Shown here one piece after another: positions 24,974-54,699 of a DNA stretch of 64,000 nt. A model generated the notes under the pieces. It worked only from the letters and a program-made list of their open reading frames with translations. It had not been told where the DNA came from and did not search any database. The position numbers were made by a program, and so were the translations under genes. This stretch comes from Convolutriloba macropyga (taxonomy: Eukaryota). The stretch lies in assembly GCF_964194025.1 (NCBI RefSeq), contig NC_134476.1:28954001-29018000 (forward strand). Direction: 5' to 3'. Every line of letters starts with the position of its first letter. Within the stretch, counting starts at the first letter, position 1.

Positions 24974-25104
24974 TTTCCCCCTTGGCGAAAATAAATAACA
25001 TGTTATTTATCAGAAAATTAATAGTCATATGTACTTGTTAAAATAATTAATACTGTAATGTTTTAATCAGAGTTTTGAATGCAACAGTTTTACTTAAATA
25101 CACA

Positions 25105-34548: not shown

Positions 34549-34992
34549 TAAAATGGGAACCAGCCGACAAATTAACCCCCCACGCACTTTGCAACAAAAT
34601 GGGAGGACTTTATGGAGGACATTCAACCCGGGTGGCAGCAAATTTCTCATTTTTCCCTTTTCGGCTAAACTCCCTGTCGGCCAATTTTTCTAACCCCTTG
34701 CTGGGCTGTTGTTTTTGCCTTGTATAGTCTTCTAAGGTAAATCTCCAATTTATCACATCTATACTGTGTTGATTTCTACATCGCCTTTTTTGATATACAT
34801 CCGTTTCGATGCATGTTCCGTTCTTTTTTGTACTTCCTCCTGGAGGCTAGCTTTAATTCAAAAAAGCTTGATCCTTGGAAGAATCAAGCTTTGTTTGGCT
34901 TTTCGTTGCTTATGTCGCAAGAAAAACTCTGCATTAGGAATAGTCGAATTCCTTGGGTGCTCGTGGGTTTTTCACTACTTCTAAAATACGTA

Positions 34993-35875
34993 AGTAATAT
35001 ATAGGTGAGCTACCCTCCCCGGGGGTGAGGTCCCCCATGTATTAAGATAGGGTATAGCGTAATTTCCAGGAGATAGGGGCCTCTCACATGTTATAAGATA
35101 GGGTATAGATTGCATGTAATAAGATTAGCCGGCTACATGTACTAAGATTAGTTATAGCCGCCGACATGTATTAAGATTAGTTTTAGCCGGCGACGTGTAT
35201 TAAGATTAGTTATAGCCGGCGAAATGTATTAGGATTAGGTATAGCCGCGGAGATGTATTAAGGTTAGTTATAGGTGCCACCATGTATTAAGATAGGGTAT
35301 AGATTTTGTGCATGTATTTGTGCACTCATATATGCTAGTAGTATAGTCGGTGCAAATGTGGGGGGGGGGGGGTAGGTTTGGAGACGCTCCTGATTGGCTG
35401 AAATTTTCAGGGGAAAATATCAATTTTTGTGTAGTTATTAAGTGTTTACTTGAGAACAATAGAATTGGCGAGGGTAATTAATTGCTGTAATTATCTAGGG
35501 GGTAATTATGTGACATTGTCAATTTTGGTTGTTAAGCTTTCGGTCAATTGCAAAGATTGTTCCCCTAATTGTTTGAATCAATTGTGTAACAGTTGTCTTT
35601 TGCGCGCTCATTAATTGGAAAAAGTTCAATGATAGCAAGAGGTAGTTTTGATCTACCGTCCTCTGGGTTATGGGCCCAGCGCGCTCCCACTGCGCCATCT
35701 TGCTAATTACATGCATATATGCATTTTTTTTGTACATTATTTGAAAAAAGATGTTAATTAACAGAAAAAAAATGAATTAAAATAGTATAAAATGACAGAC
35801 AAATTAAAAATTATGAGCATCAAAATACAAAATTACTCAATCATTTACAATAAATTGTATAAATTTCAATGAACA
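34993..35875 (+). repeat. Polinton left TIR, with 29-bp tandem repeats (CATGTATTAAGATTAGTTATAGCCGGCGA) and a tRNA gene
   Basis: Reverse complement of 52959-53947. Confidence 0.93.
35633..35704 (-). tRNA. Initiator tRNA-Met (CAT) inside the left TIR
   Basis: AGCAAGATGGCGCAGTGGGAGCGCGCTGGGCCCATAACCCAGAGGACGGTAGATCAAAACTACCTCTTGCTA. 72 nt, all four stems pair, A1:U72, three G:C pairs at the bottom of the anticodon stem, C33, A54/A60 T-loop, T5 terminator ~10 nt downstream. Confidence 0.92.
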
Positions 35876-35971
35876 AGAAAAAAACATGAATTAAAATAGT
35901 ATATAATTACAGACACAGTATAAATGCAATTGTGAATATTAAGGAACTGTGATATAGCAAAACTATTTGAG

Positions 35972-38900
35972 TTATATGTTGAGTGGTGCTGTGTGAATAC
36001 CGTCAGACTGAACAATGCTCTTAAGGTAGAAACAAGACAGTCCCTTCTTTGTCTGCTCATACGTAGCAACACAATGGTTTATTGTTCTGAACCCTCTATA
36101 TGTTGAAGTAAGATTGATATTTTCATCCATCAAACGTCGATATTTCTCCATTGTTCCATCTCCGTTTTCTTCTAGTGTTCTTTTGTTGAGACCTTTACTA
36201 CTGAACTTGTATTTGTCAGACTGTGAATCGTAGCAACAATAAGATTTGCTACAAAGTCAAATCTTTTCCGTTAATCTGAATTCTTCCTTGAAGAGCCCTG
36301 GTTCCCGTTTACCATGCTTCTTATACTTAGAGCAACACGTTCTAGGGAAGAAACCTTGAATAGCAACTGCTTGAAAAGAGTCATTACAGTCCTGCTGTCT
36401 GAATGCTTCCCATTCTTGTTTTTTAGCAAGTCGAATACAATCATACAAATTCTCATGAGCTAGGGCTAAGTAGAGAGAACCTGTATCCATCTCTAACTCC
36501 TCGAATTTATTGACATCGCAAAATCTGTCAAAGAAGCTATAGTAGAGCTCCAATATTCGTAGTTTAGCGTACTGAAGTATGAAGAATCCAACTATTATAG
36601 GTTCGCGGTGTTCAATTTTTGATTTTGCTAGTTTAACTTCGTCAAGCTCATTTGAGACATTGTTCAAACGCTTAAACATTTTTCCATTGATTGCTTTGTG
36701 CGTCTTCTCATCGTTCAAATATTTGATCTCTGTATGTTTGCTTCTGTCCATAATCTGATAACCGTAAGAGCTATTACCCAATAATTTCATGGTCTCAGCA
36801 ACAACGCTGGAATCAGTATTTTCATCTTCACCCCTTCTAGCGTCTACCACTGACTGTACAAAGGTGTTGAAACATTTTCTTGGCGTGTACTGTACAAATC
36901 TATAAATTCGTGTACATTTCAGACCGAGAATGATGTAGAAATTTAGTAGGGGAGTACTAATTGTTCCATTTTCCAGATTGAAATTTGAAATTAGCATTCG
37001 CTGAGGTTGCTTCAGTAAGTTGTTTTCAACAGCGTAATCTCTCATATAATCCCCAATATCAGCTCGACTAACGTTGAAATTTTTGAAAATAGGCGGGAAA
37101 TTCGAAAACTTGTACTTCAAGCCTGCGGGAACTTCCAAATCACATTGTACGTATCCAAATATCTCTCCATCTCTTATTTAGCTAGTCAAGACTCTTGCTT
37201 CAAAGGAAGTTTGAAAGGAAAGTTCTTTCTCACGTGATTTCTAACATTTTTTTCTTTAAAACTTTCCCACCATTTACATTCCCTGAATTCAACAATCTTA
37301 TATCCTTTACTTTTTAGGTAATCTCTTCTCAATTCATCATGTTCTCTTTTCCTAATCCCTCTCTGTGTTTCCTCTTCCGAGAGACTTGCTTTAGCTTCCT
37401 GACAAGGACAGAAATGAAAGTACCAACCCATGGCTTCAAACACCGTATTAAAATGTGCGCAAAATCCGTCTACGCTAAAACAATCAATCTCCTTCTGTTT
37501 TCCGGTTGTGTAGTAGCTCTCAATTTTACATTCCGGACGTTGTGATTGAAGTTATGACATAACCATGTTCTCAATTGTTCGAGATCTGTTTGTTCGAGCC
37601 CTGAATTTTTGAGAATCTGTATCAAGTTCCCATAGAGTGTAAAGTCCAGTGGGAATTTCTTGACACATTGAAAAGGGATAGAGTTGGCTAGCGTCAATAT
37701 GTCCGCTAGACTTGCAAAGGTTTTCAGTGTTTTGTATGAAGGCCTGATCAACTACTGCCTTTCTGGTGAAAACAATAGATGGACCAACAGTCATATCTTC
37801 ACGTATTTTGTCAAGTAAATCCTTGTCAGCTTCAACAAATGGTAAAAATTTGTGGTTTGTTGACATGTGAAGACAGATATTAGCCAAGTTCGGAAGTGTG
37901 CATCCGAGTTGTAACATATCGATACCCTTGTTGTAATAAAACTCCATCATTTTTTGCATTGCCTCCAATGTTGGAACAACATCTTTGTTGTTGTACCTCT
38001 TGACAAAATCTCTGAATGTAGCCATTTGTTCTTGATACCAGACCACTTTCAGGTAATTGTAATTGTCAATTCCAGATGGAGGAACAGTTTTCAACCTCAA
38101 CTTTTTTTTTAACTCTTGTTGAGAAAATCCACTGTTAAGCAATTTAGTGAAATCAGTAAATTCCTTCTCCAGTGGATTATAATTTCTCAGTTTGCTAAAG
38201 AAACTGTCGTAAGGAGGGAGAAAAGTTGCTTCGAGCTTTTCAGGAGAGTCAAACCACTCATAGGGGAAGAATTCTTTAGTCTCACTTGTCTTGTATGCTT
38301 TAGGGAAAAAATCAAGTGAGGTAACTCCACCGAGAAAATTGAGGATATCGAGAGATTGTACATCACCAAATTAAAGAGAAACAAAGTAATTTGCCTCCTT
38401 TTTAATAACAGTAGGTTGAAAGTCGCGCTCAGGAATAAGATAGGGCAGGAGATAGGACTTAATGAGATTTAAATCATATTTACCACTATTGAATCGGAAC
38501 ACAGTTAAAGTATTCACATAACGCTCAAAGTGTTGCTGTAAGTCCAAAAGCTGGTTTTTCTGCATTTGGAGAAATTGCGTAGACATATCAACTTCATCAT
38601 CTTCTTCGACACGTTCATCTTCACACTCAAATGCTGAAGCGTTTTGATCTTTTCTTTTACTTAATTTTTCCCAAATTGCGTTAACTCGTGCTCTGATTAT
38701 TGCTTCAATAGAGGAAAACTTTGTCCGCGTTTCAGTTTTACTTTTGTTTGCTAATTCTTCAATGGCTTCAACAAAAGATGTAATGAGAGCTTTCGGATCT
38801 TTATCGCATAGGAAGACAGGTTCATCAATTAAATTGGAGAAAATAGAAACAGAGAATGGTTCATGCTTTCCAATCCAAATGGTTGTGTTTGTATCTTTTA

Positions 38901-40326
38901 ATTGCTCGGAGGGTACACATATCGATTCAAAGTCAAAAGTAGCCAAGTTTTTGAACAATTTTTGATCATCGTTGTAAGAAATTCCAAATCCGTCAAGTTT
39001 ATCAAAAAAGGTCTCGCGCAATGTATACACACTCTTTGGGTAAACATGCTGTACTCTATCTTTACACGTTTTAACATGGCGGTTGAAATTTCCCGCTTTC
39101 TGAATGAACGTATCGCAACTTAGGCAACGGAATCGTTTAAAGAATGTGTTAATATCATCCACATAGCATATGTGGTTGTTGTAACGTAATAAATTAATAT
39201 TTTGCTCATACATTTCAACATTTCTCCTCGCAAATTCACCAACAAAACCTCCATCTACAATGTCATTATTGTAAATAAGTAAGTTGTGCTTTATCGCAAT
39301 TTCAACAAACACAAGATGATCGATCGATACCCCTCTGAAATTGATTGCGTCATGTCCAGATTCATGGAGGAATGCACTAAACAAATATTTTGCATTGGTC
39401 TCAAGCTCCTATGATCCATATAAGTGAACAGCTATAGCTCGGAATAAGCAAAGATAGTCTTTATAAGTCTCGCCTTAGCCATTCGATACAAGACAATTCA
39501 CATCTGATCGTCGAAGTAACTGTTCAGGAAGAACAGCGTCGATACATCCCATTGGAATGCTTTTTAGGAGAGCGCAGAATATTGTAGATTTGTAGTCAGA
39601 GCAAATCGCCATTTTGTATTCTCCCGCTCCTGAGCACAAGTCTCCACTAAATCCATCTTTTCAATCCTGTCCTGAAGAGAGACTAAGTCTCCTTTGGAAC
39701 AGAGTAAATGAGATTTCTCGAAGAAGGTGTTGTTCTCGTGAGCGTAGAAGTATCGATACTCGTCCGTATCCACATTTCTTAATTAAATCCTAGAGCCAAG
39801 TTGACTTTGGCAGCACAGTTGTATTTTGCGAATACTTCTTTCAACTTTTTATTAATTTCATGAGGATCGAGCTTGGACAGCTTGAAGTTGAACAGTTGAT
39901 GTCTCCCATTTTCCATCTCAGTATCGTCAAAAAAGTGCTGACAAGCACTAAGTTCTTGTTGCAGCTGCTCGTTGTCTTTTTCCATTTCCTCTGATTCTAG
40001 AACTTCGTTAAGTTTTCACTCGATTATGTCCCAACTTTTGTTGAAGTTCAATGCTTTCTCCTCCTGTGTTGTTGAAGAGAATAGAAACTCGGAAACTCCT
40101 CCAAGCATACAGTACACACAGTACTTATCTTTGTATCCTTAGGAGCGTGATGCTTAGCAATATGGTAATTCATGTCTTCTTTCTTCTTTGTACTTAAATG
40201 TGGACATTTGGGACAAAATAAAGTCGCATTATCACAAGACTGCTTGTGTCTTGCCATATTCTTCTTCACCACCATTTTGTTGCACTTAATGCATTTCACT
40301 GGGAGATTTCTATCGAAAGAAGGCAT
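35972..40326 (-). pseudogene. Protein-primed family B DNA polymerase with N-terminal C2H2/C2HC zinc fingers and a Vsr-like insertion; many frameshifts and stops
   Basis: ExoI FDFES, ExoII FNSGKYDL, ExoIII YNNKDV, motif A IDASQLYP, motif B KLLGNSSYGY, motif C MDT(G)S, KSY, SKG. Start MPSFDRN at 40326; C-terminus ...APLNI* at 35972. Confidence 0.93.
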
Positions 40327-41068
40327 TGTTTTGGTACAAGATGAAACAAATTCGGGTATTGTGACGAGCAACTATTTGTGAAAATAACAAAGTGAGAATG
40401 AAAGAAATTATTTTTGTACAATTAGGGAACGCAGCTATGACACATCACTCCATATATGGAAATTTATCATTTCCACTTTACGAAGCTTTTTGTCATAACC
40501 GAACATTCGAGAACATAATGAATAAAGCAATCAGATTCTTCCATTTTGAAATACCTTAAATTTTTATGAACATTCTTTTTAAATGAGTGAATTTATTCCT
40601 TGGCGTAAACTCAAAAATATCAAATCATTCTTATATCTTCTTCTTAATCATATCTGTTACATTTTAAATAAGTTTTCATATTTCATCCAGCCATAATCCA
40701 AAAACAGACTCACAACAAATTCAAACAAATTGTTCCAATCTTTACAAAATCTGAGATTCATATTTGTGTCTATCCACAATTGACAGAATTCGGTGCTTGC
40801 AAACAAATCTAGTCGTATTGAAAATTGAAATTAGCACATGAATATGCTTTTACGACAATATTAATTATGACGAAAACAAATATTCATCCATACTTCAGGA
40901 ACAAATTTTTACTGTACAACTTAACGGTATTGTCGTGGAACCCCTCAACCAATAAAAATCCCGTGTTAAAGAAACTATTCTGAAGATGAACGATTTTGTT
41001 TTGTGTAATTGTTTCTTGATTTTATTTTTCTTTTACATAAACAGAGTATTGCGTGAAATTTTGCTCAT

Positions 41069-41380
41069 TTGCGAAAAATGTTAATTAAAAATCATTTACA
41101 GTTGTTGGAAAAAATATATAAGAGGAAAGTAGGAATTGCCGATGCTTACAAAGTTGACGAGATTGATGTTGATTCCTACTTTTTCTACAATTTCTTGGAC
41201 ATTTCCGTTCAGAATAACAGAATATTCCGATTTAGTAAAGGATTTGAATCTGCAACATTTTCCATTAAAAAATTCAAATATGATGATTATATAACGAAAC
41301 AATCGTTTGATTTATCGTCAGAGCTACACATTAACAAGTACAAAATTTTATTTATTTTGAATTCTGTTACCGAAATTTAA
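41069..41380 (+). pseudogene. Polinton accessory ORF fragment, function unknown
   Basis: 103-aa ORF inside the element; no recognisable motif. Confidence 0.35.
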
Positions 41381-41555
41381 GAACAGTACAGACATCTAGC
41401 ACAAGCGAACTGTATTCCAATTCCTGACTCCATAGCAATCACTTCATCTGTACAAAGCGCGTTGTTTTTTCATTACTATACAGATTACAATTCTGAAGGG
41501 GTAAAAATTTGATTTGGAATTCGGCTCCCAAATATAAATATACAAAAGTTCTGTT

Positions 41556-41940
41556 CCAAATATGGAACACTTTCCGAGATTCATTTAAAATTTAACGAAT
41601 TTGAACAATTTTATCATAGCTTGACCTTTTTGGTAAATTATGTCAGTTCGTTCCCACTCAGCTATCCTTATTTAGTAAAAAAGTAGTCATATCATGTGTT
41701 ATATGTATTATTCGAAAACCATATTTGGCTTCTATTCACGCATTGATGTTCCTGTTTCGTATACGAGCGTCATTCTATAACAAATTCTTCCATATTTGGT
41801 TACGTTAAAAATTTACATTTGATGTTTTGGTTACTAACGTCACTTTTTCTACAAAATATTTCCTTCTTTGGTTACTTTGTTCTTATTGGAAGGAATTCAC
41901 TATAAATAGGAGCGATATAGTTAGACATTATCATTCTCTT
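41556..41940 (+). promoter_or_regulatory. Putative Pol II promoter: three CArG boxes, TATA/MEF2-like CTATAAATAG and Inr-like TCATTC
   Basis: CCAAATATGG at 41556, CCATATTTGG at 41719 and 41790, CTATAAATAG at 41900-41909, TCATTC at 41931 (30 bp after TATA), upstream of ORF 42095. Confidence 0.55.
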
Positions 41941-42094
41941 TCATTTCCTCAAAAATAATTTCACCTCTGTTCCTCATCGTCCTGCTAACTATTCATCAAA
42001 ACTTTATCCTACATTCACATTCTTCTTATCTACAGAGCTTACTTCAGTTTTAACGATTATCTGTTTCTAACTTCTATCAAATAATCTGAACAAA

Positions 42095-42817
42095 ATGGAG
42101 TTTAATGTGCAAAACAATAGTCTTCTGTACTCATTTTCCTTCACTGAGGAGACTGCTCGGATAAGTGTTAAAGACTTATCAAACGGATTATATGACTCTG
42201 TAATCAATTTACCCATCACTGTGTGGCATATTATTGAGCACCAGCGACAACAGTTCGACACCTATCATCAGGGTCAGGTTCCAATTACGGAGAATTAGCT
42301 CGGAACTCAAGCGATGGGACACGAAGTTGCTGTTATTAGTGGACACCACTATCCTCACGTTGCTGGGACAGAATTTTCGCTGAACTACGTCGCTGGCAAC
42401 ATTCAATACACTTTCGCTTGGGAAGAAGGGCAAATTCACAACTCTTGGTTCTCTAGCCCGGATGTAAATCAAGTTTTGAGTTCAGTGGAAGAGTCAGGGA
42501 ATTTGCTTCAAACTGTGTTTGGCTTTGATGGGAGTGAGCTAAGTGTTGATACTAGCACCTGTTCAGCGAATGATCAGCAGAAATTTGATCCGGCGCAGTA
42601 CTATGGTTCTACTGATATGTCGGCTACTCGTTCAATGACAACACCTTCCATAGAGGATGGAACAGCCCTCAATCCAATTTTGCTTACTGATGAAAATTCA
42701 ACAACTTCAATCAGCGTTCAACCAACTGATCCTCCAGTATTATTTGAACGTTCCAGACCTTTTGGGAATGAGTTTCAAAACTTGCCAGAGTATGTTGTGA
42801 GAACTCTATTTGAGTAG
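42095..42817 (+). pseudogene. Polinton accessory protein (acidic, Ser/Thr-rich C-half); two in-frame ORFs separated by one stop
   Basis: ORFs 42095-42298 and 42314-42817 share a frame. Confidence 0.5.
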
Positions 42818-42984
42818 ATTTGAGTTGGTAAAATTTTTCAGCTTCATTTGTAATCAATTTTAACGGAATAGTTGTATGTTGATTTATACATTTTCCTGGT
42901 GATGAATTTAAACAATCTTTATAATATAATCTTTCTTATGTGAGCTTTCTTTTCTAAACCAGTTCAAAAGGATATCATCAAATA

Positions 42985-43450
42985 AAAATTTGATATTTAA
43001 ACCTTTGTTACCAAACTTGATATTTAACGGTAAGAGCGTTATAAAAACTCGACATTTAACAAAAATACTTGATCAAAAATTTGATATTTAAGAAAAAAAC
43101 TGAACAGAAATTTGATTTCTATGAAAAAAACCTGTATGAAAACTTGATTTTTAAGTTGTTATAGTAAATGAAAACTTGTCATTTTAAAAATTAAAAAATC
43201 TCTTCATTTTCTGCGTTAAATTATACTGTAAACTGGTAAAATTTGCGCTTTATTGTATCCAATTGGAAACGGTTTGTTGATATTTAAACAAAAAAATTGA
43301 ATGAAAACTCGACATTTAACGAAAATTTTGTCGAAAAAACTCGACTTTTATTGAAAATAATTGTTCCAAAACCCAAAATTTAACAAAAATTTTTGTGAGA
43401 AAACTCGACTTTTAAAAGAATAATTTGTTGCAAAACAGGACATTTAACAG
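42985..43450 (+). repeat. Degenerate array of AAAACTYGAYATTTAAC, ~12-13 copies
   Basis: Exact AAAACTCGACATTTAAC at ~43044 and ~43305, with variants at ~30-35 bp spacing. Confidence 0.75.
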
Positions 43451-43830
43451 ATTAGAGGTATCAATTTAAACATTCAAGAAAAAGATTGTAAAAATTGAGA
43501 AATTGAATTTTTTTGATTTTTAACTCAAAATATAAAACTGATACTATGTGAATCATTGTCATGCAATTACAAATCTTTTACTTTCTAGTTTCAAGATATA
43601 ACAGAGAGTTATCAATTAAGCCATGACCATCTAACAAACGGTCAACAATTTTTATCAGTTCACTCTCATATTTTGAGTTTTTAATAGATTGAATTCTGTC
43701 CAGAAAGGAAGATCCTATGGTTTGTGTGCTTACATTTCTTTGTTCGGCTCGCAGTAGATGTCTCTTGAACTTCTTTCTACTCAATCCCTTTTTTGGACAC
43801 ACTAGGTAACTTCTCAACAAAATTGTTTTA

Positions 43831-44175
43831 CTAATTGTGTTGTTCTGCTCTGTTTAACTGAGTAAAGACAAGTCCCGATTCTTCCAAAATATTGCCAAAA
43901 AATTGATGTTTATATAATGTATATAAACAATCGACCGCCTTGTAAAAATAAGAAAGATCTTGCAGTCTTTGAAGCAAGTCATCGGTGGAGGAAGAAATGA
44001 GAACTGTGTGATATCGACAGGTTGTCAGGGGACAGAAACTGTTGTGTGAATCAACAACATTTTCATTTGTACGAATATATGATCTATAATCTTTGCCAGA
44101 TACAGATATACACAACGCCTTTTCACAAAAACTTTTGTAAAAGTGTGGTAAAATCTGACACATAACTGCTGCCAT
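43831..44175 (-). CDS. Polinton accessory protein, unknown function (Cys/His-containing)
   Basis: 114-aa ATG-initiated ORF diverging from the CArG cluster. Confidence 0.45.
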   Translation of the reverse strand: MAAVMCQILPHFYKSFCEKALCISVSGKDYRSYIRTNENVVDSHNSFCPLTTCRYHTVLISSSTDDLLQRLQDLSYFYKAVDCLYTLYKHQFFGNILEESGLVFTQLNRAEQHN

Positions 44176-44197
44176 TCTGTAAAATTATTTAGTACGT

Positions 44198-44330
44198 TCA
44201 AATAAGGAAATCAATTTCTTTAGAACTTATATTTCAAATAAGGAAACTAACTTTTTATTATAACTAAAGCCAAATTCCAAATAAGGAAATCAACTTATTT
44301 ATTATAAACGAATTCAAATTCCAAATAAGG
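44198..44330. promoter_or_regulatory. Four tandem CArG-type motifs YCAAATAAGGAAA between divergent genes
   Basis: TCAAATAAGG at 44198 and 44234; CCAAATAAGG at 44277 and 44321. Confidence 0.65.
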
Positions 44331-44375
44331 AAACAAATGAAATTGTCTTGTGCAATTTAAAATCTCATTTGAACT

Positions 44376-44498
44376 ATGAATCAATTCAAGAAACAGCGGA
44401 TTAAGAAATTTCGATGTTTTACTTGTTCAAACTATTTCCGTCACTACTTCTCTCTAATGCAACACAGACGTGCTAAACACAAAGACGCTTTTCTATAA
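44376..44498 (+). CDS. 40-aa single C2H2 zinc-finger microprotein (absent from the ORF track)
   Basis: MNQFKKQRIKKFRCFTCSNYFRHYFSLMQHRRAKHKDAFL*: F-x-C-x2-C-x3-F-x5-L-x2-H-x4-H. Confidence 0.65.
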   Translation: MNQFKKQRIKKFRCFTCSNYFRHYFSLMQHRRAKHKDAFL

Positions 44499-44707
44499 TG
44501 ATTCAAAAGTTTTCTTTATTGAAAATTTCTGATTAGAAATCCTTTTTTAGGGAAGAAGTATAAACAGACACATTTTTCTCTTTCTTTTTAGGAAATTGTG
44601 TGAAAACACTGATGTCATTAGCATAAAAAGAAATTGTGTGTTGTAGAGGGCTTTAATTTTAAGCAAATCATTTAATCAACTTCTCGCAGCTTACTCAAGT
44701 TACGTAA

Positions 44708-45290
44708 ATGTCTCTCTCCAAAGTTTCTCTTTTTTACTCGAGCGCTCCATCAATGTTTACAAATTCACAACCTAAATTGGGTACTGATTCGGTCCCATTT
44801 CATATTGATTTTGGCTCTAATACAAACAGATTTGGGAGATTTACTGTGTCCCAAATATTTAGAAATGTACAAAATTACTCTGAACCAGCTTTTCAAGTCT
44901 TCAAAAAAGATAAATGTGCAACATTTGAAAAGTGCCATTAGTTGAAAATTGGAGATTACGAATTCAAGAAATTTTGTCTCCTGAAGAACGATCTGCTGAA
45001 TGGAGACTGGGAAATTCGAGAAAATCCAGCTCAATTTGAAAAGAACCCAAAAATGGAAGACGCGCTGCAACAATGTCACAAAGCAAGAGAGATCAGCATT
45101 GGAAAAAATCGAAGGCTCTACGTTACCTTTATACAGTACGTTCCGAACAATCCAGCTTCAATTTATGTCCAGATCCGACTATTTTGTCGCAAAGAGAGCA
45201 ATGAGTTCAAGCAAGTGATTTACGTCAGCTATTAAATGGAAGAAATCAAAGAACTGATTGAAAATCTTAAAGATTTCTCTCATATTGAAC
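44708..45290 (+). pseudogene. Putative PC4-like ssDNA-binding protein (possibly two tandem domains), with in-frame stops
   Basis: ISIGKNRRLYVTF...IYVQIRLF...VSY*MEEIKEL resembles the PC4/p15 pattern; ORFs 44708-44941 and 44942-45235 are in frame. Confidence 0.45.
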
Positions 45291-45421
45291 AACGTACATT
45301 TCAATAACTACTGCTGCGCATTATTATAATGATTTTCTATATTGAATGATGAATATTTGGTGATTATATGTATTTGTCTTTCAGCAAACAATTTTTCATA
45401 TGAAACTTTCTTCTTCTTAGA

Positions 45422-45790
45422 ATGAGTTGGGATATTGGATGCTCTAGAAACATTTTCTTAAGTCTCAGAGACAAATCAAAAGTTTTTCATGTCAGGTTAC
45501 ATCACGAGCTTGAAAGGTATTCATATACAGTTCTTGAAGCGAAAAATTTTCCCAATATGGATATTTTAGACGTAGAGTCCCAAATTTCAGAATTCAAGTG
45601 GGTTATTCATAATGGACTGCGCAGAACAACTCTAACATATCGTTCTGACAAACAAGAAATTTCCATTTCTCAACATCGCATGAACGGATATCAGTGGAGT
45701 TTTCTTACAAAGATTGATTTGAAAAAAAGGAGTATAAAAATCTAGTAGAGCATCTACCCACCCTTCTTTCCTATATAGAAAATTACAAAA
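45422..45790 (+). pseudogene. Accessory protein, possibly also PC4-like
   Basis: WDIGCSRNIFLS...VFHVRL resembles the upstream ORF. Confidence 0.3.
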
Positions 45791-45827
45791 AGACTTGCAT
45801 TATTTTGGACGAAGCAACTCAGAGTTA

Positions 45828-46231
45828 ATGAATATTGTTACTCTGGTAAAAATTTTCAATTGTTACGGAAGCAAATTTAAATGTTTCCAACGAACGAAAA
45901 ACGTTAAAACTGTTTTCTCGCAGCTTGCAAAATTTGGGACCGAAATGTCGATTTGGACGGAATTGATCAAAAGTTTCCTCATGGAGGAAGAATTGGATAT
46001 GGAAATTCTCTTTTGGATTTTTTCTTAGCTAGATCAAAAATTTTTCGTCTACATGCAATTTTACATGATTCTGCTGGAGCTGTAAAAACAACAACAGACG
46101 AAGGACCCGGTTATTGTTACATGCTGCCGCAGTTACCCAGCTCCTGTCTTCTAGGTCATATAACTGGATTATTCTTTTGTCTCTATATCAAAGTTTGTCA
46201 TCCTCATATTTTCAAAATACTAGATTGTTAA
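45828..46231 (+). pseudogene. Putative phospholipase A2-like protein, frameshifted
   Basis: GGRIGYGNS...RLHAILHDSAG resembles the GxG loop + HD dyad of viral PLA2 domains. Confidence 0.4.
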
Positions 46232-46234
46232 TCA

Positions 46235-46711
46235 TTTGTCAATTATCTCAGCTAAAAAAAGGACTACTCTCGTTGTGTTTGATCAGTTGTCAAGGAGCTG
46301 GGAATTTTCAAGGACGGAATTGTGTTGGGATATATAATCCTCCCACCAAATGACTACAAGCCAACATTTCAAGCAAAGTGGAACACAAAGAATTTACATG
46401 GAATCAACTGGAATAATGGAAAAGTGGATTACTCAGATCATCCAATCATAATTGATCAACATTGTTCTCCTACAACCGAATATTTTGCCAAAGGATTGGA
46501 AAAATGTAAAATCCTATCCAATTACTTGTGTAAGGATGTGGAAAATTTGGACTATTTTGGATGTCCAAAAGCCTCTAAGTTGACTTCCAACGAAGATACT
46601 ATCTGGGAATGTAGTAACTACCACTTCCGACACAAAAAAACATTACACTGTGCAGAGAAGAAAGCTTATGCTTATGCAACTTGGGTTCTTAATTTTTTTG
46701 ACAAAAGTTAA
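46235..46711 (+). pseudogene. Putative DnaQ/DEDD-like exonuclease of Polinton type; N-terminus disrupted
   Basis: LHGINWNNG..DY, YFAKGLEKC..L, VENL..FGCP, C...H....HCA.KK pattern. Confidence 0.55.
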
Positions 46712-47102
46712 TATTTGTAAAAATTCTTATGTACTTTGATTGTAATATATCATATTATCTCTTAGTTAATTTTTAAAGTTGTTTTATTCTTTTAAAAAAC
46801 ATAGAAAAGTTGCTTCAAAAATGAGAAAATTGAACAAATTTTGTCCTAGCGTTACACAGTTATTCTTCATTTCAACTCTGTCGTTTTTCTTAAATTTGAA
46901 TTTATTTTCCTTTTTAATGCTTTCTGTTATTAATTCTTGTGAAGAGACAGTGTTTTGGCTCTCGCTGTTGTTTGTTTCTTTTTTATGTTTATAAGCTTAT
47001 CCCATTTTTTTATTTATTTACATCGCTATTCAGCTGGAACATTTTTTCTAATGTCTCAATGATAACGTTTAAAAGACTGAGCATACGGATAAAGGATTAA
47101 TT

Positions 47103-47329
47103 TTGTGTAATTTTGTATTTGATGATAATAATCAAGAACGACAATCATGGAAATGTTTTGGACAGATCTGTAGTAGGTCTCTAGTCATTTTTCTGTCCCA
47201 ATTTTTTGTTATACTGGTAATTCTGGCCTGTTGTATAGTACGAATAACATTGGCTAGAAGAAACAACAGTTTGGATTGCAATCTTTTCTAGTACAGTTGG
47301 TTATATTTTACCTTCACCTAAATTATGAA
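47103..47329 (+). pseudogene. Small two-TM Polinton membrane protein, frameshifted
   Basis: SRSLVIFLSQFFVILVILACCIV and, after the shift, VWIAIFSSTVGYILPSPKL*; its stop overlaps the ATPase ATG (ATGA). Confidence 0.55.
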
Positions 47330-48152
47330 CAAGATAATTTCCACAAAAGAACGAACTTTTATTTCATTGGTTGGTCAAAGCGGGTCTGGGAAATCTCATC
47401 TTATACATGAATGGTTAACATTTGGAACTTTTCAACCAGAGTTCGACAAAATTTACTACTTCTATCAACATTATCAATCTCTTTATGGTTTAATGTCTAA
47501 AAATGTTAAAAATATTGAGTTTAAAGAAGGAGTTGGCTTTGAGTTTATTCAAAACCTCCCGAATAACGGAACAAAGTATCTGTTAAAGTTTGACGACTCT
47601 TATGAGGAAATTTCCAGCTCTAAAGATTTTGTTAAAATTGCAACAGCTGGAAGACATAAAGGACTCAGCACAATATATATCAAACACAATTTATTTCATC
47701 GGAGTAGATTAAGAAGAGATATAGAGTTACAAAATACTCATATTGTCTTGTTCAAACCTCCTAGAGATGTACTGCAAATAAAAACTCTGAGTCAACAGTT
47801 GGGATTAGGTTCACAATTAAGAGATTGGCATACCAAAGCAAGTTCTATTCCTTATGGTTATTTACTTAATGATTTAACTCCCGAAACAGTCGACACTCTT
47901 CGATTTTGTACAAATAGTGGATCGATTCCTTCAATTTTTTTCCTTCCACAACATAACGGACAGCGGACCACATTTTTGAGTGATGAGCACACAACATCTC
48001 TCTACTCTGACAACGTTCCAAAGTTATTCCCGGAACTTCAAAAGAACTTACCTAAAAAAATTTCCAAAAGAGTTTTTTCAGTTTCTAAACGAGTGCCTCG
48101 TAACCTGCTCAGAGGAAAACTGCGAGATATTCAAAAACAAGATGTAATATAG
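47325..48152 (+). CDS. A32/FtsK-family genome packaging ATPase
   Basis: Walker A GQSGSGKS, Walker B LLKFDD, AGRH.G.STIYIKHNLF, QNTHIVLFK.PRD..Q. The 3' end runs into the next ORF by frameshift. Confidence 0.93.
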   Translation: MNKIISTKERTFISLVGQSGSGKSHLIHEWLTFGTFQPEFDKIYYFYQHYQSLYGLMSKNVKNIEFKEGVGFEFIQNLPNNGTKYLLKFDDSYEEISSSKDFVKIATAGRHKGLSTIYIKHNLFHRSRLRRDIELQNTHIVLFKPPRDVLQIKTLSQQLGLGSQLRDWHTKASSIPYGYLLNDLTPETVDTLRFCTNSGSIPSIFFLPQHNGQRTTFLSDEHTTSLYSDNVPKLFPELQKNLPKKISKRVFSVSKRVPRNLLRGKLRDIQKQDVI

Positions 48153-48284
48153 TATCAAGACGAAATTCATCAGCTTATTCTAACAAGAACTGGAATAAAT
48201 AAAAAGAGAGCGATTTTAAGTTCAAGGAAAGGAATAGAACTTATATCAATTTTAACTCCGTCTATCATTAACCGTCTTTCATGA
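48030..48284 (+). pseudogene. Small basic Polinton protein, disrupted
   Basis: FLNECL.NLLRGKL...KKRAILSSRKGIELISILTPSIINRLS* reconstructed across frames. Confidence 0.45.
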
Positions 48285-48285
48285 A

Positions 48286-48693
48286 ATGGAACAGTTTGTT
48301 TTGATTCCTCAGCAGCTTTACGAACAAAAATTCAAATTAAATGTGTACAAATTGGACAAGAGTGAGGGAAAAGTTAACTTCGTACCACAAAATTTAGATT
48401 CTCTTCACAAGGAAATCACCAATAACACTAAATCATTCAAAAACGACTCAGTTGTAGATCAAATACTGAAATTTCCTCGAATCAAGCTGTCCCTCAGTGA
48501 CTCCATTTTACTGGATGGAAGAGATACAAATGTAGCATTTACCGATTTTATTTACGCTTTGAAGAGAAAAAATATTGAATTTCTTGATATCTATTACACA
48601 ATACTTGATGCTACAGGGATAAGTCTGAACAAAATTATAAACAAGGCTGCCAAAAGCAAAGACAGAGGGAGTTGGATCCCTTTCAAAATCTGA
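48286..48693 (+). CDS. Polinton hypothetical protein directly upstream of the integrase
   Basis: Intact 135-aa ORF MEQFVLIP...GSWIPFKI, tightly packed between neighbours. Confidence 0.6.
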   Translation: MEQFVLIPQQLYEQKFKLNVYKLDKSEGKVNFVPQNLDSLHKEITNNTKSFKNDSVVDQILKFPRIKLSLSDSILLDGRDTNVAFTDFIYALKRKNIEFLDIYYTILDATGISLNKIINKAAKSKDRGSWIPFKI

Positions 48694-49578
48694 AAAAGCG
48701 AAACTTCAACGATTATACAAAGAAGAAAAAGCTGCATTTGGATCGGATAGAAATCTTCAGAAAGCGAGCGATCTTTAAAGAAGCAAGGTTATTTCATTTC
48801 TCCACGCTAAAATTTCCTATACAAAATATCGTCGAGCAAATCGACATTTTAGACGATTACCTGCATTTGCAAAGCGGATAAATGAAATAAGTGCCCTTGA
48901 TTTAGCTTTTATGGACAAATTGTCAGAGTTTAGTAGCGGATTGAAGTATTTATTAATCTGCGTTGATGTATTTTCTCGTTTTGTCCGTGTTCAACAATGA
49001 AATCAAAGAATTCTACAGATGCTCTAGCAGCTTTCAAAAAAAATCTACGAAAAAAAAAGTATGGGTCGATCAAGGAACAGAGTTTGGTGGCGAAATTAGG
49101 AAATTTAGTAGACAAAAGAAATTAAAAGTTATTCAACGAGAAGTGAAACAAAAGCTGCCGTAGCTGAGAGAGCTAACAGATCTTTGAAAAACATTATTTA
49201 TCGCTTCATGGAAGAAAACGGGTATAAGTACCTTTTAAAAATGAGCTCTTTCCTAAATACAATGAATGGTAGAGTAAATACATCTACAGGTAAAGCTCCA
49301 AAGGAGGTAAAAAACAAAGACTTTCTATCAATTTTTTTTTTTATAAAATCCGATCAGTCAATACAAAAAAACCTTGGTTTAAAGCAGGGGATAAAATACG
49401 GATTTCGAAATACGATATTCCTTTTAGAAAAGGATACAAGTCACAGTTCATGGGTGAAATTTTTGAAAATTTTAAGATTGCTACTCACAAACCTCCAACA
49501 TAGAACCTCAAGGGAGAGCAGGGTGATGAAATACTAGGAAAAATTTATGAACAAGAACTCTCAAAGTGTGTCATCTAG
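48672..49578 (+). pseudogene. Polinton retroviral-like (rve) integrase, frameshifted
   Basis: LDLAFMDKL, KYLLICVDVFSRF, VWVDQGTEFGG, KAAVAERANRSLKNIIYR, F.KGYK.QF..EIF.I, G..YEQEL. Confidence 0.9.
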
Positions 49579-49580
49579 TG

Positions 49581-50340
49581 ATGATTTCTTATACGGTAGA
49601 GCTGGTTTCCAACGCATCTTTTGATTGTTATCCAAATAATACATTGAGTTCTTTTACCAATTTCCTTCCAGAACTGATTAACCTTGAAGGAGAATGGGAG
49701 GTGGCAATAAACGGACTATCATATCCAACTTTGTACCAGAATATTACTGATGGAAATTTTTTATATCTAGATGCTGCAACTCCATATACAAAACCTTCCG
49801 ATTATTATACAATTGATGCAGAACTATATCCATCAATATCTGATGTTGTGAACGAAATGAACAAAAAAAATTCAGGAAAGAGAAAAGTATGAGAAAACTC
49901 CAATCAAATTAAGTCAACAGATTTACACAGAGAATCTCCTTAAGTCTTCCTAATGAAAACTCGTTACTAGTTACTTTCAGTACCGATCTCTTTCACGTAT
50001 TTGGTTGTGATGAAGCTGTTTACGGAATGGGAGTTAATATGAGTGGTCTTGGACCACATTTTCCTAAATTTCCTTACGATATTATTCGAATTCATACTCT
50101 CATGATATACAGTGATATTGTTGAATACAGTATTCTAGGTGATACAAAAGCCGCGCATTTGAGATGTATTGCGTTTATTTCTAAAATTTAAAATGGAGAC
50201 ATAATATCTACTGGACAATATATGAATTATCAAAACTTTCCAAATCTACATTTTAAAAAAATTCTGAAAAATTCTTTCCACAGCATTAAACTTGAGCTCA
50301 GCGACTCATACGTTGGAAAAGTTCCCTTCAAGTTTACGAA
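49581..50340 (+). pseudogene. Minor capsid (penton) protein, frameshifted
   Basis: VELVSNAS...YPNNTLSSFTNFLP..INLEGEWEVA; C-terminal MIYSDIVEY..LGDTKA..LR. Confidence 0.85.
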
Positions 50341-50344
50341 AAAA

Positions 50345-50700
50345 GGTTGCAGACAGTGATTTACCGTATTTTCGTGGTTATTCAAGATAAAGGGGAAGAG
50401 GATTTGGTGCTTTAGCACAAACAATTGGGAGGACTGCAATTCCATTTTTGAGACAATATGTTGTACCAGCAGCTAAAAGAGTTGGTGCTGACTTGATTGA
50501 ATTAGCTGCGCCAGAAATCGGAAAGGTATTAGCTGGAAGGAAAAGTTAAAATATGCTGCCACAGATGTTGGAAAGAAAACTTCAGTAAACAGCTAGGAGG
50601 ACGAAAACCTTAACGACGTTTTATTCGAAAACGCTCGACAAAAATCAGTCGAGGTCGGCGAACTAGGAGGGATATTTTTTTAATACTAAAGTGAATACCA
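50345..50700 (+). pseudogene. Putative virion core/membrane-active protein (YFRG...RGRGFG motif, Arg-rich tail)
   Basis: LPYFRGYSR*RGRGFGALAQTIGRTAIPFLRQYVVPAAKRVGADL...KQLGG...RGRRTRRDIF. Confidence 0.6.
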
Positions 50701-52013
50701 GATCAACAAATGATAGTAATTTCCGTTATGGACACTTTACCAATTCTTGCTTGGAGATTTTTGAAAAAATTCCGGTTTTGGAAACAATTGAATCCTCCCA
50801 TATTCAAGAAGTTTATCCCAGTAATTCATTGAATGAAAGCAGCATTGAATTTGAATTTGAAACTGATAGAATCATTTATCTTGATATGAGAGATATTCAT
50901 TTACAAATTAAAGTTGGATTGCAAAAGGGAAGATTATTTGTAGAGAAAAGAGAGAAGCATGGAAAAACAGATATCGGTATGACTTTCACTGATGATGATT
51001 TACAATATTTGACTCATGTCAGCAGTTTTTTACACTCTCTTTTCTCCATCTGCGAAGTGTGCTTAAACAATCAACAAGTGTACAACTTTAACGGACTCTA
51101 TGGTCACAAAGCTCTGATATCCAATGAATTCAATGCTTCTACAATGAAAAATGAAGGAATTGTGGCTTGTCATGGATACGAATTTGAGAAAGATCCTAGT
51201 GATCATGAAAAAAGCCCGTTAATAGACAGGGAAGAAGAGCTTTTGTTGAAAGATGGGGCCACCTTATATGGTAAACTTGCAATCGACTTATTTCGATGTG
51301 AAGAATTATTACTTCCAAATACAAAAATTAGAGTCAAATTGATTCGCGCGAGACAAAATTTTTACATGATTTCCTACAATCCTCATGTTTCCCTTAGAGT
51401 TCTCGACTGTTCACTTTTTACGAGACGTTTAGTCGTTAATGAAGTCTGTCAACAGACAATCAAGTATCAACTAACACATCAACCAGCTTGCTATATTTTA
51501 ATGGAGACAATTGCGCGAACATTTATTTCTCCTTCAGGACAAAACCAAATTAATCAGGAAAATTTTTTCAATAATGCTCCAATCAGGCGAATTGCAATAG
51601 CAATGAACACTAATTCAGCATTCACTGGACATTTTCAAGAAAATCCTTTTCATTATCAAAAGTTTGGACTGCGGGAGCTGAGAATTGTTCGAGGGGGGAG
51701 AGCTGTTGTCTCCATTGATACAACCAACAATTGTAGAGTTTATGTTAAAACAATGAAGGCAATGAACTTCAACGAAGAAATTCCTGCGTTACCCAATGAT
51801 TTTTTTACAGATCATTGTGTGCTTGTATTCAATCTCACCTCACTGCAAGATGCTGATAAAAATGTTCATTATCTTGAACTCAGTGGGGAAAGTCTTCGTT
51901 TAGAAATGTTCTTTGAACGTCCGCTAACCAATGTAACCGAGTTAATTGTTCTAGGAGGACGAATCTCAACAGTTATAATTGATCAGTTTGGAACAGTTGC
52001 AAAAAATGTCTGA
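50691..52013 (+). CDS. Double jelly-roll major capsid protein
   Basis: 440 aa; LEIF...VLETIE...EVYP, IEFEF...YLD, LHSLFS..V.LN, DLF..E.LLP.., N.AF.G....NPF.YQ.F, VFNLTS, G.LRLE..F..PL. Confidence 0.9.
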   Translation: MNTRSTNDSNFRYGHFTNSCLEIFEKIPVLETIESSHIQEVYPSNSLNESSIEFEFETDRIIYLDMRDIHLQIKVGLQKGRLFVEKREKHGKTDIGMTFTDDDLQYLTHVSSFLHSLFSICEVCLNNQQVYNFNGLYGHKALISNEFNASTMKNEGIVACHGYEFEKDPSDHEKSPLIDREEELLLKDGATLYGKLAIDLFRCEELLLPNTKIRVKLIRARQNFYMISYNPHVSLRVLDCSLFTRRLVVNEVCQQTIKYQLTHQPACYILMETIARTFISPSGQNQINQENFFNNAPIRRIAIAMNTNSAFTGHFQENPFHYQKFGLRELRIVRGGRAVVSIDTTNNCRVYVKTMKAMNFNEEIPALPNDFFTDHCVLVFNLTSLQDADKNVHYLELSGESLRLEMFFERPLTNVTELIVLGGRISTVIIDQFGTVAKNV

Positions 52014-52424
52014 AGAACTCTGCATTAATCAAGATTTTTTAATTTTTTTTTCAATTTTTTCATGATTTTTATATCATTGCCTTCTGGGTCGGAACATTTG
52101 TGGGATATGTACTTTCATCACCCAGTTGCAACCCCTTTCATACTATTATATCAAGATAGGGAATGGTAGACCTACATCAAACTTATATGTATACCCTATT
52201 TGTGCGGTATTCCTGGGACTTTCAATCATCATCATTATCTTTCATCCCGATTTCACCAGTAACACTGAAGACCGAGTAAGTAAATCTACAGAAGATCTGA
52301 TACGTACAGTTCCCCAATCTAAGGATTGTTGTTTTTTGAAAAGAACGAATCATTTCAACTTGATTGTAATGTGAGAAATCCCTGTTCCAAAGGAGCTTGC
52401 GAATTGAAACAGAAAATTATTTGT

Positions 52425-52824
52425 CATTGATAATAAATCTCTTCAACAAATTAAAGAACGTTTTCCTGAGCTAAAAGTCAAATACATTGTATTGTTTCCG
52501 GCAGATTTCATTCCAAATTTACCCAAATTCAGCTTTGCAATCATTAACACTGCTTCGAGTAAAGAAGTCGGTGAACATTGGATATTGATTGCTCGACTCA
52601 ACAGAAATTACTATTATGCGGATTCTCTTGCTCGATCAGTAACACATATCGAATTTTTAGGTAAAAAGTACCAAAAAATAAAACATCGACCACTTCAGAA
52701 GATGCAAAATTTGTGTGGATTCTACGCAATTTTTGCAGCATTTCAACTATTTAAAATTTTCCAAACCAACTTGAATAGTATTCATGATGTGCACGTGTTA
52801 ATTTTTATAAGAAACTATATGTAG
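52425..52824 (+). pseudogene. Adenain-like cysteine maturation protease; 5' end damaged
   Basis: FPAD..P, IINT....GEHW, YYADSL, PLQ...NLCGFYAI (His-Asp-Gln-Cys order). Confidence 0.9.
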
Positions 52825-52958
52825 TAGTGTTCATTTTGATACTTAATAAGCTGAAGTTAATAGAGTCGATAGTATTTGTTTCTCGTAACAGTTTCTCGTG
52901 AGTTTTTTAAACTTTTTTAAATCGAACTTCAATAACCACTCGGCTAAGTGTACCGTAA

Positions 52959-53947
52959 TGTTCATTGAAATTTATACAGTTTTTTGTAAATGATTGAGTA
53001 ATTTTGTATTTTGTTGCTCATAATTTATTCTGTGTCTGTCATTTTATACTATTTTAAATCATTTTTTTTCCTTTATATAACATGTTTTTTCAAATAATGT
53101 ACCGAAGAAATTCATATATGCATGTAATTAGCAAGATGGCGCATTGAGAGCGCGCTGGGCCCATAACCCAGAGGACGGTAGATCAAAACTACCTCTTGCT
53201 ATCATTGAACTTTTTCCAATTAATGAGCGCGCAAAAGACAACTGTTACACAATTGATTCAAACAATTAGGGGAACAATCTTTGCAATTGACCGAAAGCTT
53301 AACAACCAAAATTCAACATGTCACATAAATACACTCAGATAATTAGGGTAATTGAAAACCCACGCCAATTAACTTCACAGTTTAATATGACCTAAAATTT
53401 GTAAACAAAAATTCAACATGTCACATAATTACCCCTCAGATAATTACAGCAATTAAATACCCACACCAATTCTATTGTTCTCAAGTAAACTTTTAATAAC
53501 TACACAAAAATTGATATTTTCCCCTCGAAATTTAAGCCAATCAGGGGTGTCTCCGAACCTACCCCCCACATTTGCACCGACAATACTACTAGCATATGTG
53601 CATGCACAAATACATGCACAAAACCTATACCCTATCCTAATACATGGCGGCAACTACAACTAACCTTAATACATCTCCGCGGCTATAACTAATCTTAATA
53701 CATGTCGCCGGCTATAACTAATCTTAATACATGTCGCCGGCTATAACTAATCTTAATACATGACGGCGGCTATAACTAATCTTAATACATGTCGCCGACT
53801 AATCTTATTACATGCAATCTATACCCTATCTTAATACATGTGAGAGGCCCCTATCTCCTGGAAATTACACTATACCTTATCTTAATACATGTGGACCTCA
53901 ACCCCCCCCCCCCCCCCCGGGGGAGGGTAGCTCACGTATATACTAAT
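52959..53947 (-). repeat. Polinton right TIR, including an extra ~100-bp internal duplication near 53310-53410
   Basis: Reverse complement of 34993-35875; AAAATTCAACATGTCACATAA occurs twice here. Confidence 0.93.
53130..53201 (+). tRNA. Initiator tRNA-Met (CAT) inside the right TIR, two D-loop substitutions
   Basis: Identical to the left copy except D-loop ATTGAGA versus AGTGGGA; TTTTT at 53211-53215. Confidence 0.85.
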
Positions 53948-54699
53948 TACGTAACTGCTTTTCGATGTTCATTTGTGTTCACTTGCTGAGTGAAGTTGAA
54001 TTAACGTCTCATATATGAAACAGCAAAGAAGTCTATCTGAAGTTGTAGATAGACGGAATTACCGAGGGATGAAAGCTAGATAGAGTTTTGAAAACAAAGT
54101 TTCACAATTCGTTGAGCTATTGGCTCTTTCATGAAGAAGAATAGGTAACAGTAGATTAGGTGAGGATCGGAAATAATGGGGACGCCACAGAGCTTGAATG
54201 TACAGGAGTTATCGTCGCTTTGAAGAAAACTGTCAGGGTTAGCACACTCCGTTGGAGTAGAAAAGGGCGAATGGGCGTCGTTCCCTAACCCCGCACATTT
54301 GTACCGGAGAAAATCTGTATTGAACAGATATTATAATAATGCCATCTATATGAGGTTCAACACCATTTTTTGAAAAACAGCTCAGCTATAGGCGTCAAGT
54401 GCCGTTCAACCAGATCATCAGAATCCTGAGAAAAATTCATGCCATACATTGTCGCGGGCAAAATTACGGAGCATGGTAGGCGATAGGTGGACTTGAAAGA
54501 TATTGAGAATAAATTGACTTTGTTCCTAAGGTAGTATATATCATTTCTCGCTATTGATTTGCCGTGTTTAAAAGGTTTTTATGGTGACAATTTGGCGAAG
54601 AAGAAGAAGATCGAATAAACCATCAAATCACACTGACAAAATGTCGAAATTATTTCCAGATTTAAAAAAACATTAAATTTGGTTGGTCAAGAGTTTTTT

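Follow-up and report, generated by a model that had tools for sequence, protein, structure and literature searches.

To our knowledge, what triggers the expression and replication of Polintons in animals is essentially unknown. In their relatives among protists, a giant virus acts as the trigger, according to the accessible text of PMC8097293. We analysed a 64,000-nucleotide stretch of the genome of Convolutriloba macropyga (NC_134476.1; hereafter the window), in which a degenerate Polinton/Maverick copy has a cluster of CArG boxes in its central region, and asked whether such an element could be transcribed under the control of host SRF. The CArG box, CC(A/T)6GG, is the binding word of SRF.

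The element and its gene order

The element (34993..53947, ~19.0 kb) has terminal inverted repeats of ~0.9-1 kb, is flanked by a 6-bp target duplication, TACGTA (34987-34992 and 53948-53953), and ends in AGTAAT//ACTAAT, with one mismatch per end against the (AGT)2//(ACT)2 motifs. The Polinton gene set (pPolB, integrase, A32 ATPase, protease and capsid) is present, with gene remnants. The element fits the definition of Polintons/Mavericks in the accessible part of PMC8097293, and its terminal inverted repeats, 6-bp target duplication and core genes are shared with, and its ends resemble the AGT/ACT-type ends of, the animal elements described in the portions consulted of PMC8097293 and PMC8502044.

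The protein-primed DNA polymerase B (pPolB; 35975..40326, minus strand, ATG at 40326) lies in several pieces in this copy. PolB motifs are present, identity to a 1402-aa ORF of locus L106 is 35-59%, and the N-terminus carries C2H2 fingers (zf-C2H2 match); Pfam PF03175 gave no match on it. Rightwards follow a 202-aa ORF (41078..41686, plus strand) and a 240-aa ORF (42095..42817, plus strand, downstream of promoter P2), both broken in this copy and of unassigned function, a tail-to-tail gap with a 32-bp repeat (42818..43577), and two 199-aa ORFs, likewise broken, on the minus (43578..44175) and plus (44708..45307) strands. The former is homologous to an ORF of L106. The product of the latter is likely an ssDNA-binding protein with a tandem PUR/PC4/Whirly-like fold, as predicted from its subfamily-B homologue (model pLDDT 85; Foldseek match to Pur-alpha, E 2e-4, TM 0.4). 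The ATPase/integrase/capsid/protease module occupies 47325..52824 (plus strand) and holds a single CArG box, at 51262, which is coding. Its integrase was recognised by the rve domain of the L106 homologue (39-47% identity to the window), the ATPase and protease by weak Pox_A32 and Peptidase_C5 matches; we infer the capsid gene, which has no Pfam match, from size and position.

CArG boxes in the window and chance expectation

The eight perfect boxes of the original prediction were all found, as were its near matches at 44198 and 44234 (TCAAATAAGG) and the distance of 124 bp between the 40450 site and the pPolB start. Its chance expectation of ~0.3 is close to the 0.2-0.3 obtained here. Dinucleotide shuffles gave a mean of 0.21 and reached eight sites in 0 of 500 cases, and the best 4331-bp stretch in 300 shuffles of the whole window contained at most four. 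The host background of 25 CArG boxes per 360 kb corresponds to 0.30 expected; 60 PF03175 loci, which represent another pPolB element devoid of similarity to the window Polinton, were used for background only. Control patterns were found once (spacer 5), once (spacer 7) and not at all (GG(W6)CC). CC(A/T)6GG is thereby above background, as is proper to an SRF-type CArG element, and a ninth, coding box at 45047 lies just beyond the range initially considered.

The eight sites had been counted as independent and mostly outside the larger ORFs. The second statement holds for five of the eight, which are intergenic; the first does not, as three are coding and two of the five (44277 and 44321) are units of one 44-bp repeat. 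The promoter-type gaps, 1.44 kb in total, are thus left with about four independent intergenic boxes (Poisson P ~4e-6).

Sites in the three head-of-gene gaps

Gap P1, between the divergent pPolB and the 80-aa and 202-aa ORFs, holds the box CCATATATGG at 40450..40459, which has a homologous CArG in subfamilies A, B and C. Gap P2 contains two copies of CCATATTTGG, at 41719..41728 and 41790..41799, the latter with a TATA box 110 bp downstream. This TATA box, CTATAAATAG, which also fits the MEF2 consensus, belongs to a core-promoter block (41835..41909, plus strand) with a CRE-like AACGTCA and an inverted CCAAT box (ATTGG); the block is kept in 18/21 A, 8/9 B and 8/8 C copies.

The left part of gap P3 (44198..44334) consists of the 44-bp tandem repeat, amplified in subfamily A, with CCAAATAAGG at 44277 and 44321 and both near matches; that at 44234 is a unit of the same repeat and a perfect CArG in 19/20 sister copies. 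In the right part (44541..44617) two decayed boxes, at 44541-44551 and 44583-44592, precede a CRE-like TGATGTCA (44610-44617), and are perfect in 20/20 and 18/20 sister copies, respectively. No RNA family match was obtained, and the fold of P3 is not unusual (z -0.45).

The coding boxes differ in standing. The one at 41556..41565, in the 202-aa ORF, reads P-N-M-E and is perfect in all three subfamilies with three different cores; it is largely explainable by its codons, and dual use is possible. The box at 43787 (P-K-K-G, minus-strand 199-aa ORF) is window-only, being missing from 20/20 sister copies, and that at 44771 (P-K-L-G), which like 45047 lies in the plus-strand 199-aa ORF, is confined to subfamily A.

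Conservation across three subfamilies

The ~19-kb Polinton occurs in three subfamilies, A, B and C, two of which show 73-76% identity to the window. The 20 subfamily-A copies were counted as one lineage because they are 99% alike. The subfamilies have common ancestry. Lack of conservation among copies had been named beforehand as grounds for abandoning the SRF reading; CArG boxes proved to be kept in P1-P3 of all three subfamilies, with at least one box in 32/33 (P1), 36/37 (P2, with the coding site counted in for C) and 37/37 (P3) scored copies. Forty copies were entered, of which 3-7 per gap remained unscored. The convergent gap, which has no CArG in the window and serves as an internal negative control, had a box in 0/37 scored copies, and sites were also absent from the termini.

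Intergenic totals are five in the window, eight in A, six in B and four in C, against shuffle means of ~0.1 (0/1000 each). Between subfamilies the A/T cores change while CC..GG stays constant, and sites turn over; three-way column identity across the CArG-bearing stretches is 45-57%. Flanks of the type (A/T)AA adjoin 15/36 half-sites vs 3/42 in the background (Fisher P 4e-4). The boxes are, overall, both conserved and promoter-proximal, as judged by start codons and the TATA box.

Partner sites

P1 of subfamilies B and C has the arrangement CArG-aaa-CRE-ttt-MEF2 with fixed spacing: CArG-aaa-CRE in 9/9 B and 8/8 C copies, CRE-ttt-MEF2 in 6/9 and 8/8. The 19-bp composite has 185 exact matches in the genome and its reversed control none; the partner motifs were chosen after viewing the alignment. 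In subfamily A, including the window, CRE and MEF2 partners were found at P1 in 0/21 copies. These partner sites had been overlooked earlier. No Ets core lies within 30 bp of the P1 CArG in 4/4 representatives, with scattered cores elsewhere, so the conserved Ets site beside the box that marks a TCF-type serum response element is lacking.

Host factors and host promoters

The host search with PF00319 gave three matches, namely SRF (two exons) and MEF2. The genome encodes one SRF, an SRF-type MADS protein (best PDB match SRF, E 7e-10), along with an MRTF-like gene with RPEL and SAP and Jun-like, Fos-like and CREB-like bZIPs. Perfect CArG boxes stand at -195, -204 and -236 from the ATG of actin genes L111, L118 and L119, i.e., in three of six genes with located start and three of the 13 actin-family loci examined (P ~0.002); a fourth canonical actin (L120) has no proximal box, nor was one found at the host SRF, MEF2 and Jun-like genes. 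For the Fos-like genes, no first exons were located. One actin box, TTACCATAAAAGGAAA, is identical over 16 bp to a subfamily-C Polinton site and is not Polinton-derived. The three actin promoters share with the Polinton the word itself, flanks of a similar TT(A/T)..(A/T)AA type and a comparable spacing to the start codon, but have single sites, with no adjoining CRE seen.

Probable role of host SRF and competing explanations

From sequence, we consider it probable that host SRF drives the replication-side genes of this Polinton family. The element likely borrows the host SRF pathway, because the SRF word is kept before DNA-copying genes in three diverged lineages. Host SRF would bind the CArG boxes in P1-P3 and activate polymerase II transcription of pPolB, of the gene for the predicted ssDNA-binding protein and of four ORFs without characterised products. 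Its partners would be CREB/ATF/AP-1 of the host, joined in two of the subfamilies by MEF2, with sites 3 bp apart. SRF binding, promoter activity and upkeep of the sites by selection during active spread are what we infer from these patterns; among cofactor routes, MRTF is favoured over TCF. The proposed wiring to host SRF is well supported, if indirectly, by the position in promoter gaps, the conservation with core turnover, the presence of host SRF, the word and flanks shared with actin and the failure to find a MADS domain in the element. Its wound/immediate-early part gained no direct support: conserved Ets sites are missing beside the boxes, and proximal CArG boxes were not found at the host Jun-like, SRF and MEF2 genes. 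A signal-gated early programme is a tentative extension that we regard as rather doubtful. In it, a switch of SRF, CREB/AP-1 and MEF2 copied from host immediate-early logic would wake the replication genes in response to wounding, to growth signals or to remodelling of actin, and the hundreds of copies would also have spread clusters of SRF-responsive enhancers across the host genome. With a named host factor and defined sites, the question of the Polinton trigger becomes directly testable.

The same boxes could also serve to silence. SRF can act as a repressor when paired with certain cofactors, and YY1 is a competitor for CArG boxes. Host SRF, or a different host protein such as YY1 at the sites containing CCAT, might repress or park the element, which could, for instance, stay latent in muscle or soma. 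We think this unlikely: the partner sites CRE, CCAAT and TATA are activating promoter parts, and many conserved boxes lack CCAT. Least probable, and largely refuted, is neutrality, by which the sites reflect inheritance from one ancestor, tandem duplication and Pro-x-x-Gly/Glu codons. The coding sites, the tandem-repeat units and the window-only 43787 fit it well enough, but 4-8 intergenic sites per subfamily survive ~25% divergence, with cores altered and some positions new, and are confined to head-of-gene gaps; control patterns remain near chance.

We give little probability, too, to recognition of the palindrome by a dimeric protein of the element itself, for which it would mark a private promoter, an origin or a signal for packaging; the candidates would be the zinc fingers of pPolB and the product of the 202-, 240-, 80- or 199-aa ORF. 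Several ORFs adjoining the sites lack an assigned function or known fold, and another Maverick family of the same genome has a TBP-like ORF. This ORF, considered as a candidate, is absent from the window family, and no MADS domain was matched across hundreds of copies, so that no self-contained regulon with an element-coded MADS or TBP was found. The 202-aa ORF, considered as a MADS protein for its KRKxGI likeness, was rejected (hhalign probability vs SRF 2.7%); it has no Pfam or PDB match and no MADS similarity, and its model (pLDDT 36) is unusable. The plus-strand 199-aa protein has the predicted ssDNA-binding type of fold, the CArG word recurs with its flanks in actin promoters of the host, and the termini have no sites. 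L106 keeps homologous ORFs, yet its divergent promoter has no CArG. No CArG cluster was seen in a distant relative or in the interior of another Maverick family of this genome. Relatives with a capsid identity of 51-64% were also encountered; a search with other capsid relatives uncovered no family in this genome at a greater distance, and viral contigs yielded neither a relative nor the composite motif. The probable use of host SRF here and a private TBP-like gene in another family suggest that Polinton lineages within one genome differ in transcription strategy.

Comparison with known systems

SRF use is already known for HCMV and HTLV-1; no paper tying Polintons to CArG or SRF was found in the openly available main texts searched. 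In the accessible text of the animal Maverick/Polinton papers (PMC8097293, PMC8502044) neither promoter elements nor transcription factors of the host are described for the elements; there the word 'promoter' occurs twice in PMC8097293, once about a host gene, and not at all in PMC8502044.

At the HCMV major immediate-early enhancer, host SRF and several CRE sites are in use, and HCMV resembles the Polinton as a nuclear DNA virus with SRF and CRE sites at an early promoter; it differs in having an SRF/ELK-1 ternary site in one enhancer, experimentally shown (PMC7690695, text consulted in part), whereas the Polinton has putative SRF sites in three promoter gaps, with MEF2 partners and no conserved Ets site. 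Clustered SRF, CREB and MEF2 consensus sites form the Arc SARE, a mammalian enhancer with shown inducibility (PMC3561385, portion available). Subfamilies B and C likewise hold SRF/CRE/MEF2 sites within ~35 bp upstream of pPolB; unlike in SARE, as there described, the triple is missing at P1 of subfamily A and the window.

HTLV-1 has an intragenic SRF/ELK-1 enhancer in coding sequence that affects neighbouring host transcription (PMC9065021), and avian leukosis virus a CArG box in U3 (PMC3080830). Going by the excerpts available, both are, like the Polinton, integrated viruses with internal SRF sites, but they belong to the retroviruses and have one or two sites, whereas the Polinton is a self-synthesising DNA element with hundreds of copies. 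Such a high-copy element with 6-12 CArG boxes could also influence neighbouring host genes.

CArG boxes of the Polinton

The 19-kb Polinton (34993-53947) is bounded by inverted repeats and a TACGTA duplication, and its genes are largely broken in the window copy. The pPolB gene runs leftwards from 40326, and the genes for ATPase, integrase, capsid and protease are located right of 47325. Between them, individual sister copies carry ORFs of 80, 202 and 240 aa (plus strand), 199 aa (minus) and 199 aa (plus). This layout gives three head-of-gene gaps: P1 precedes pPolB, P2 precedes the 240-aa ORF, and P3 separates the divergent pair of 199-aa ORFs. A fourth gap is tail-to-tail. A modelled homologue of the plus-strand 199-aa protein (pLDDT 85) resembles Pur-alpha, MRP and Whirly proteins in fold, with E 2e-4 and a TM of about 0.4, which suggests that it is likely a single-stranded DNA-binding protein and that the CArG region would serve the replication side of the element. 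The tail-to-tail gap is filled with 32-bp tandem repeats (43043-43449). Both terminal inverted repeats contain 5.8 copies of a 29-bp tandem repeat (35126-35293 and 53634-53801), and no CArG was found in these arrays.

All eight perfect CC(A/T)6GG words that the original prediction placed in the central region were verified at their coordinates. Their enrichment, also claimed there, held against 500 dinucleotide shuffles of the 4331 bases (mean 0.21, maximum 2); when the whole window was shuffled 300 times, no 4331-bp stretch had more than four. Markov backgrounds of order 2-5 predicted 0.28-0.36 boxes and the genomic background 0.30 (25 CArG in 360 kb from 60 unrelated loci), and pattern controls confined the excess to the six-base spacer and the CC..GG order. 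The raw count overstates how many boxes are independent: those at 41556, 43787 and 44771 are in coding frames, 43787 is private to the window (missing in 20/20 sister copies), and 44277 and 44321 both belong to one 44-bp tandem repeat, each as a unit.

Conservation and partner sites

A DNA search of the genome gave 597 candidate places, of which 40 were scored; 20 copies from these, all of subfamily A, made up the first sample. The second comprised 20 loci chosen via capsid searches, which yielded subfamilies B and C and one extra A copy. The 20 subfamily-A copies are 99% alike, 93% identical to the window and carry 9-11 CArG each; B and C are about 75% and 73% identical to the window. Intergenic boxes in P1, P2, the convergent gap and P3 number 1, 2, 0, 2 in the window, 1, 2, 0, 5 in A, 1, 3, 0, 2 in B and 1, 1, 0, 2 in C (shuffle means 0.07-0.10; 0/1000 shuffles matched the window or any subfamily). 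At least one box was present in P1 of 32/33, P2 of 36/37 and P3 of 37/37 scored copies and in the convergent gap of 0/37, with 3 to 7 of the 40 copies per gap not anchored and the P2 window of C taking in a coding site; an intergenic P2 box occurs in 6/8 full C copies. Conservation among family copies thus holds for P1-P3 across A, B and C. Stretches on the pPolB and capsid sides had 0-1 CArG per 7-8 kb (six stretches).

Upstream of pPolB, subfamily C has an AP-1 site, CArG, aaa, TGACGTCA, ttt and CTATTTTTAG, in that order, the last being a MEF2 consensus. The arrangement in subfamily B is the same, but with TGACGTAA. Among patterns picked post hoc from the alignment, CArG-aaa-CRE occurs in 9/9 B, 8/8 C and 0/21 A copies, a CRE-tta-CArG-like unit of P3 in 20/21 A, 7/9 B and 8/8 C, an AACGTCA-CCAAT-TATA block of P2 in 18/21 A, 8/9 B and 8/8 C, and a 19-bp composite 185 times in the genome, versus 0 for its reversed control. 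No conserved Ets site was found beside the CArG boxes. One A copy has a perfect second CArG (L091:1815-1824) where B and C have the MEF2 consensus, which suggests a MADS site able to switch type.

Host factors and possible mechanism

A PF00319 search of the host gave three matches, two SRF exons (the first with human SRF as best match, E 7e-10) and one MEF2 exon. The host also has an RPEL+SAP gene and bZIPs that are presumably Jun-, Fos- and CREB-like, as named by motif. Among 13 actin-family loci, a perfect CArG precedes the ATG of three canonical actins (at -195, -204 and -236), and one of these boxes matches the subfamily-C site across 16 bp but has no other similarity to the element; none was found in a fourth canonical actin or two divergent actins. 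The divergent paralogues L112 and L114, which lack CArG, both have a MEF2-like site some 350 bp before the ATG, with AAACGTCA and a TATA box after it. Flanks of the (A/T)AA type accompany 15/36 Polinton half-sites versus 3/42 in the background. Proximal CArG was not found at the host SRF, MEF2 and Jun-like genes, which counts against the proposed immediate-early reading.

Judging from these sequences, host SRF probably occupies the Polinton boxes and, with bZIP and MEF2 partners, would activate the replication genes for transcription by polymerase II; that the sites instead serve repression we regard as unlikely. The sequence is compatible with wound-response, muscle or germline expression alike. 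Neutral sites are very improbable: A/T cores vary among subfamilies and some boxes are at new positions, in stretches whose three-way identity is 45-57%, and such turnover with CArG kept is the pattern expected if selection acts on the consensus and not on the sequence. An element-coded protein as the CArG binder is also doubtful. The distant relatives L106 and L107 (metagenome contigs, 42% capsid identity) have one and no CArG, CCAAT boxes and an E-box stand instead in the homologous divergent gap of L106, and a second Maverick family of the same genome (27-28% capsid identity, TBP-like ORF) has none in its interior in 4/4 copies. Among the elements compared, the cluster is therefore lineage-specific, which a clade-wide element protein fits less well than recruitment of a host factor.

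Both the HCMV immediate-early enhancer (PMC7690695) and HTLV-1 (PMC9065021) are established users of SRF, a conserved CArG is described for the LTR of avian leukosis virus (PMC3080830), and clustered SRF, CREB and MEF2 sites define the Arc synaptic activity-responsive element (PMC3561385). Among the papers listed by literature searches, none linked Polintons with CArG or SRF, and passages of PMC8097293 and PMC8502044 on Polintons/Mavericks describe no such promoter. The Polinton cluster is a real and conserved feature.

Other elements and host genes

The Maverick family with the TBP-like ORF has one TTTCCATATAAGG close to one end in 4/4 copies, identical to the subfamily-B pPolB site and possibly a convergent SRF site. 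This strong CArG (L155:7873-7882; also L157, L158 and L160) lies about 115 bp from the element end and overlaps a CCAAT box. Another pPolB element (L024-L083) is very abundant (3892 candidate places), its genes having no similarity to those of the window Polinton. The window also contains the C-terminal region of a host gene for a PIKK kinase (PI3/4-kinase and FATC; 91-1293) and a host gene for a leucine-rich-repeat protein (57961-59535). A Gypsy-type LTR retrotransposon (24379-31304) with two long ORFs and LTRs 97-98% identical has a CArG in one LTR (30806), the other being one base off.
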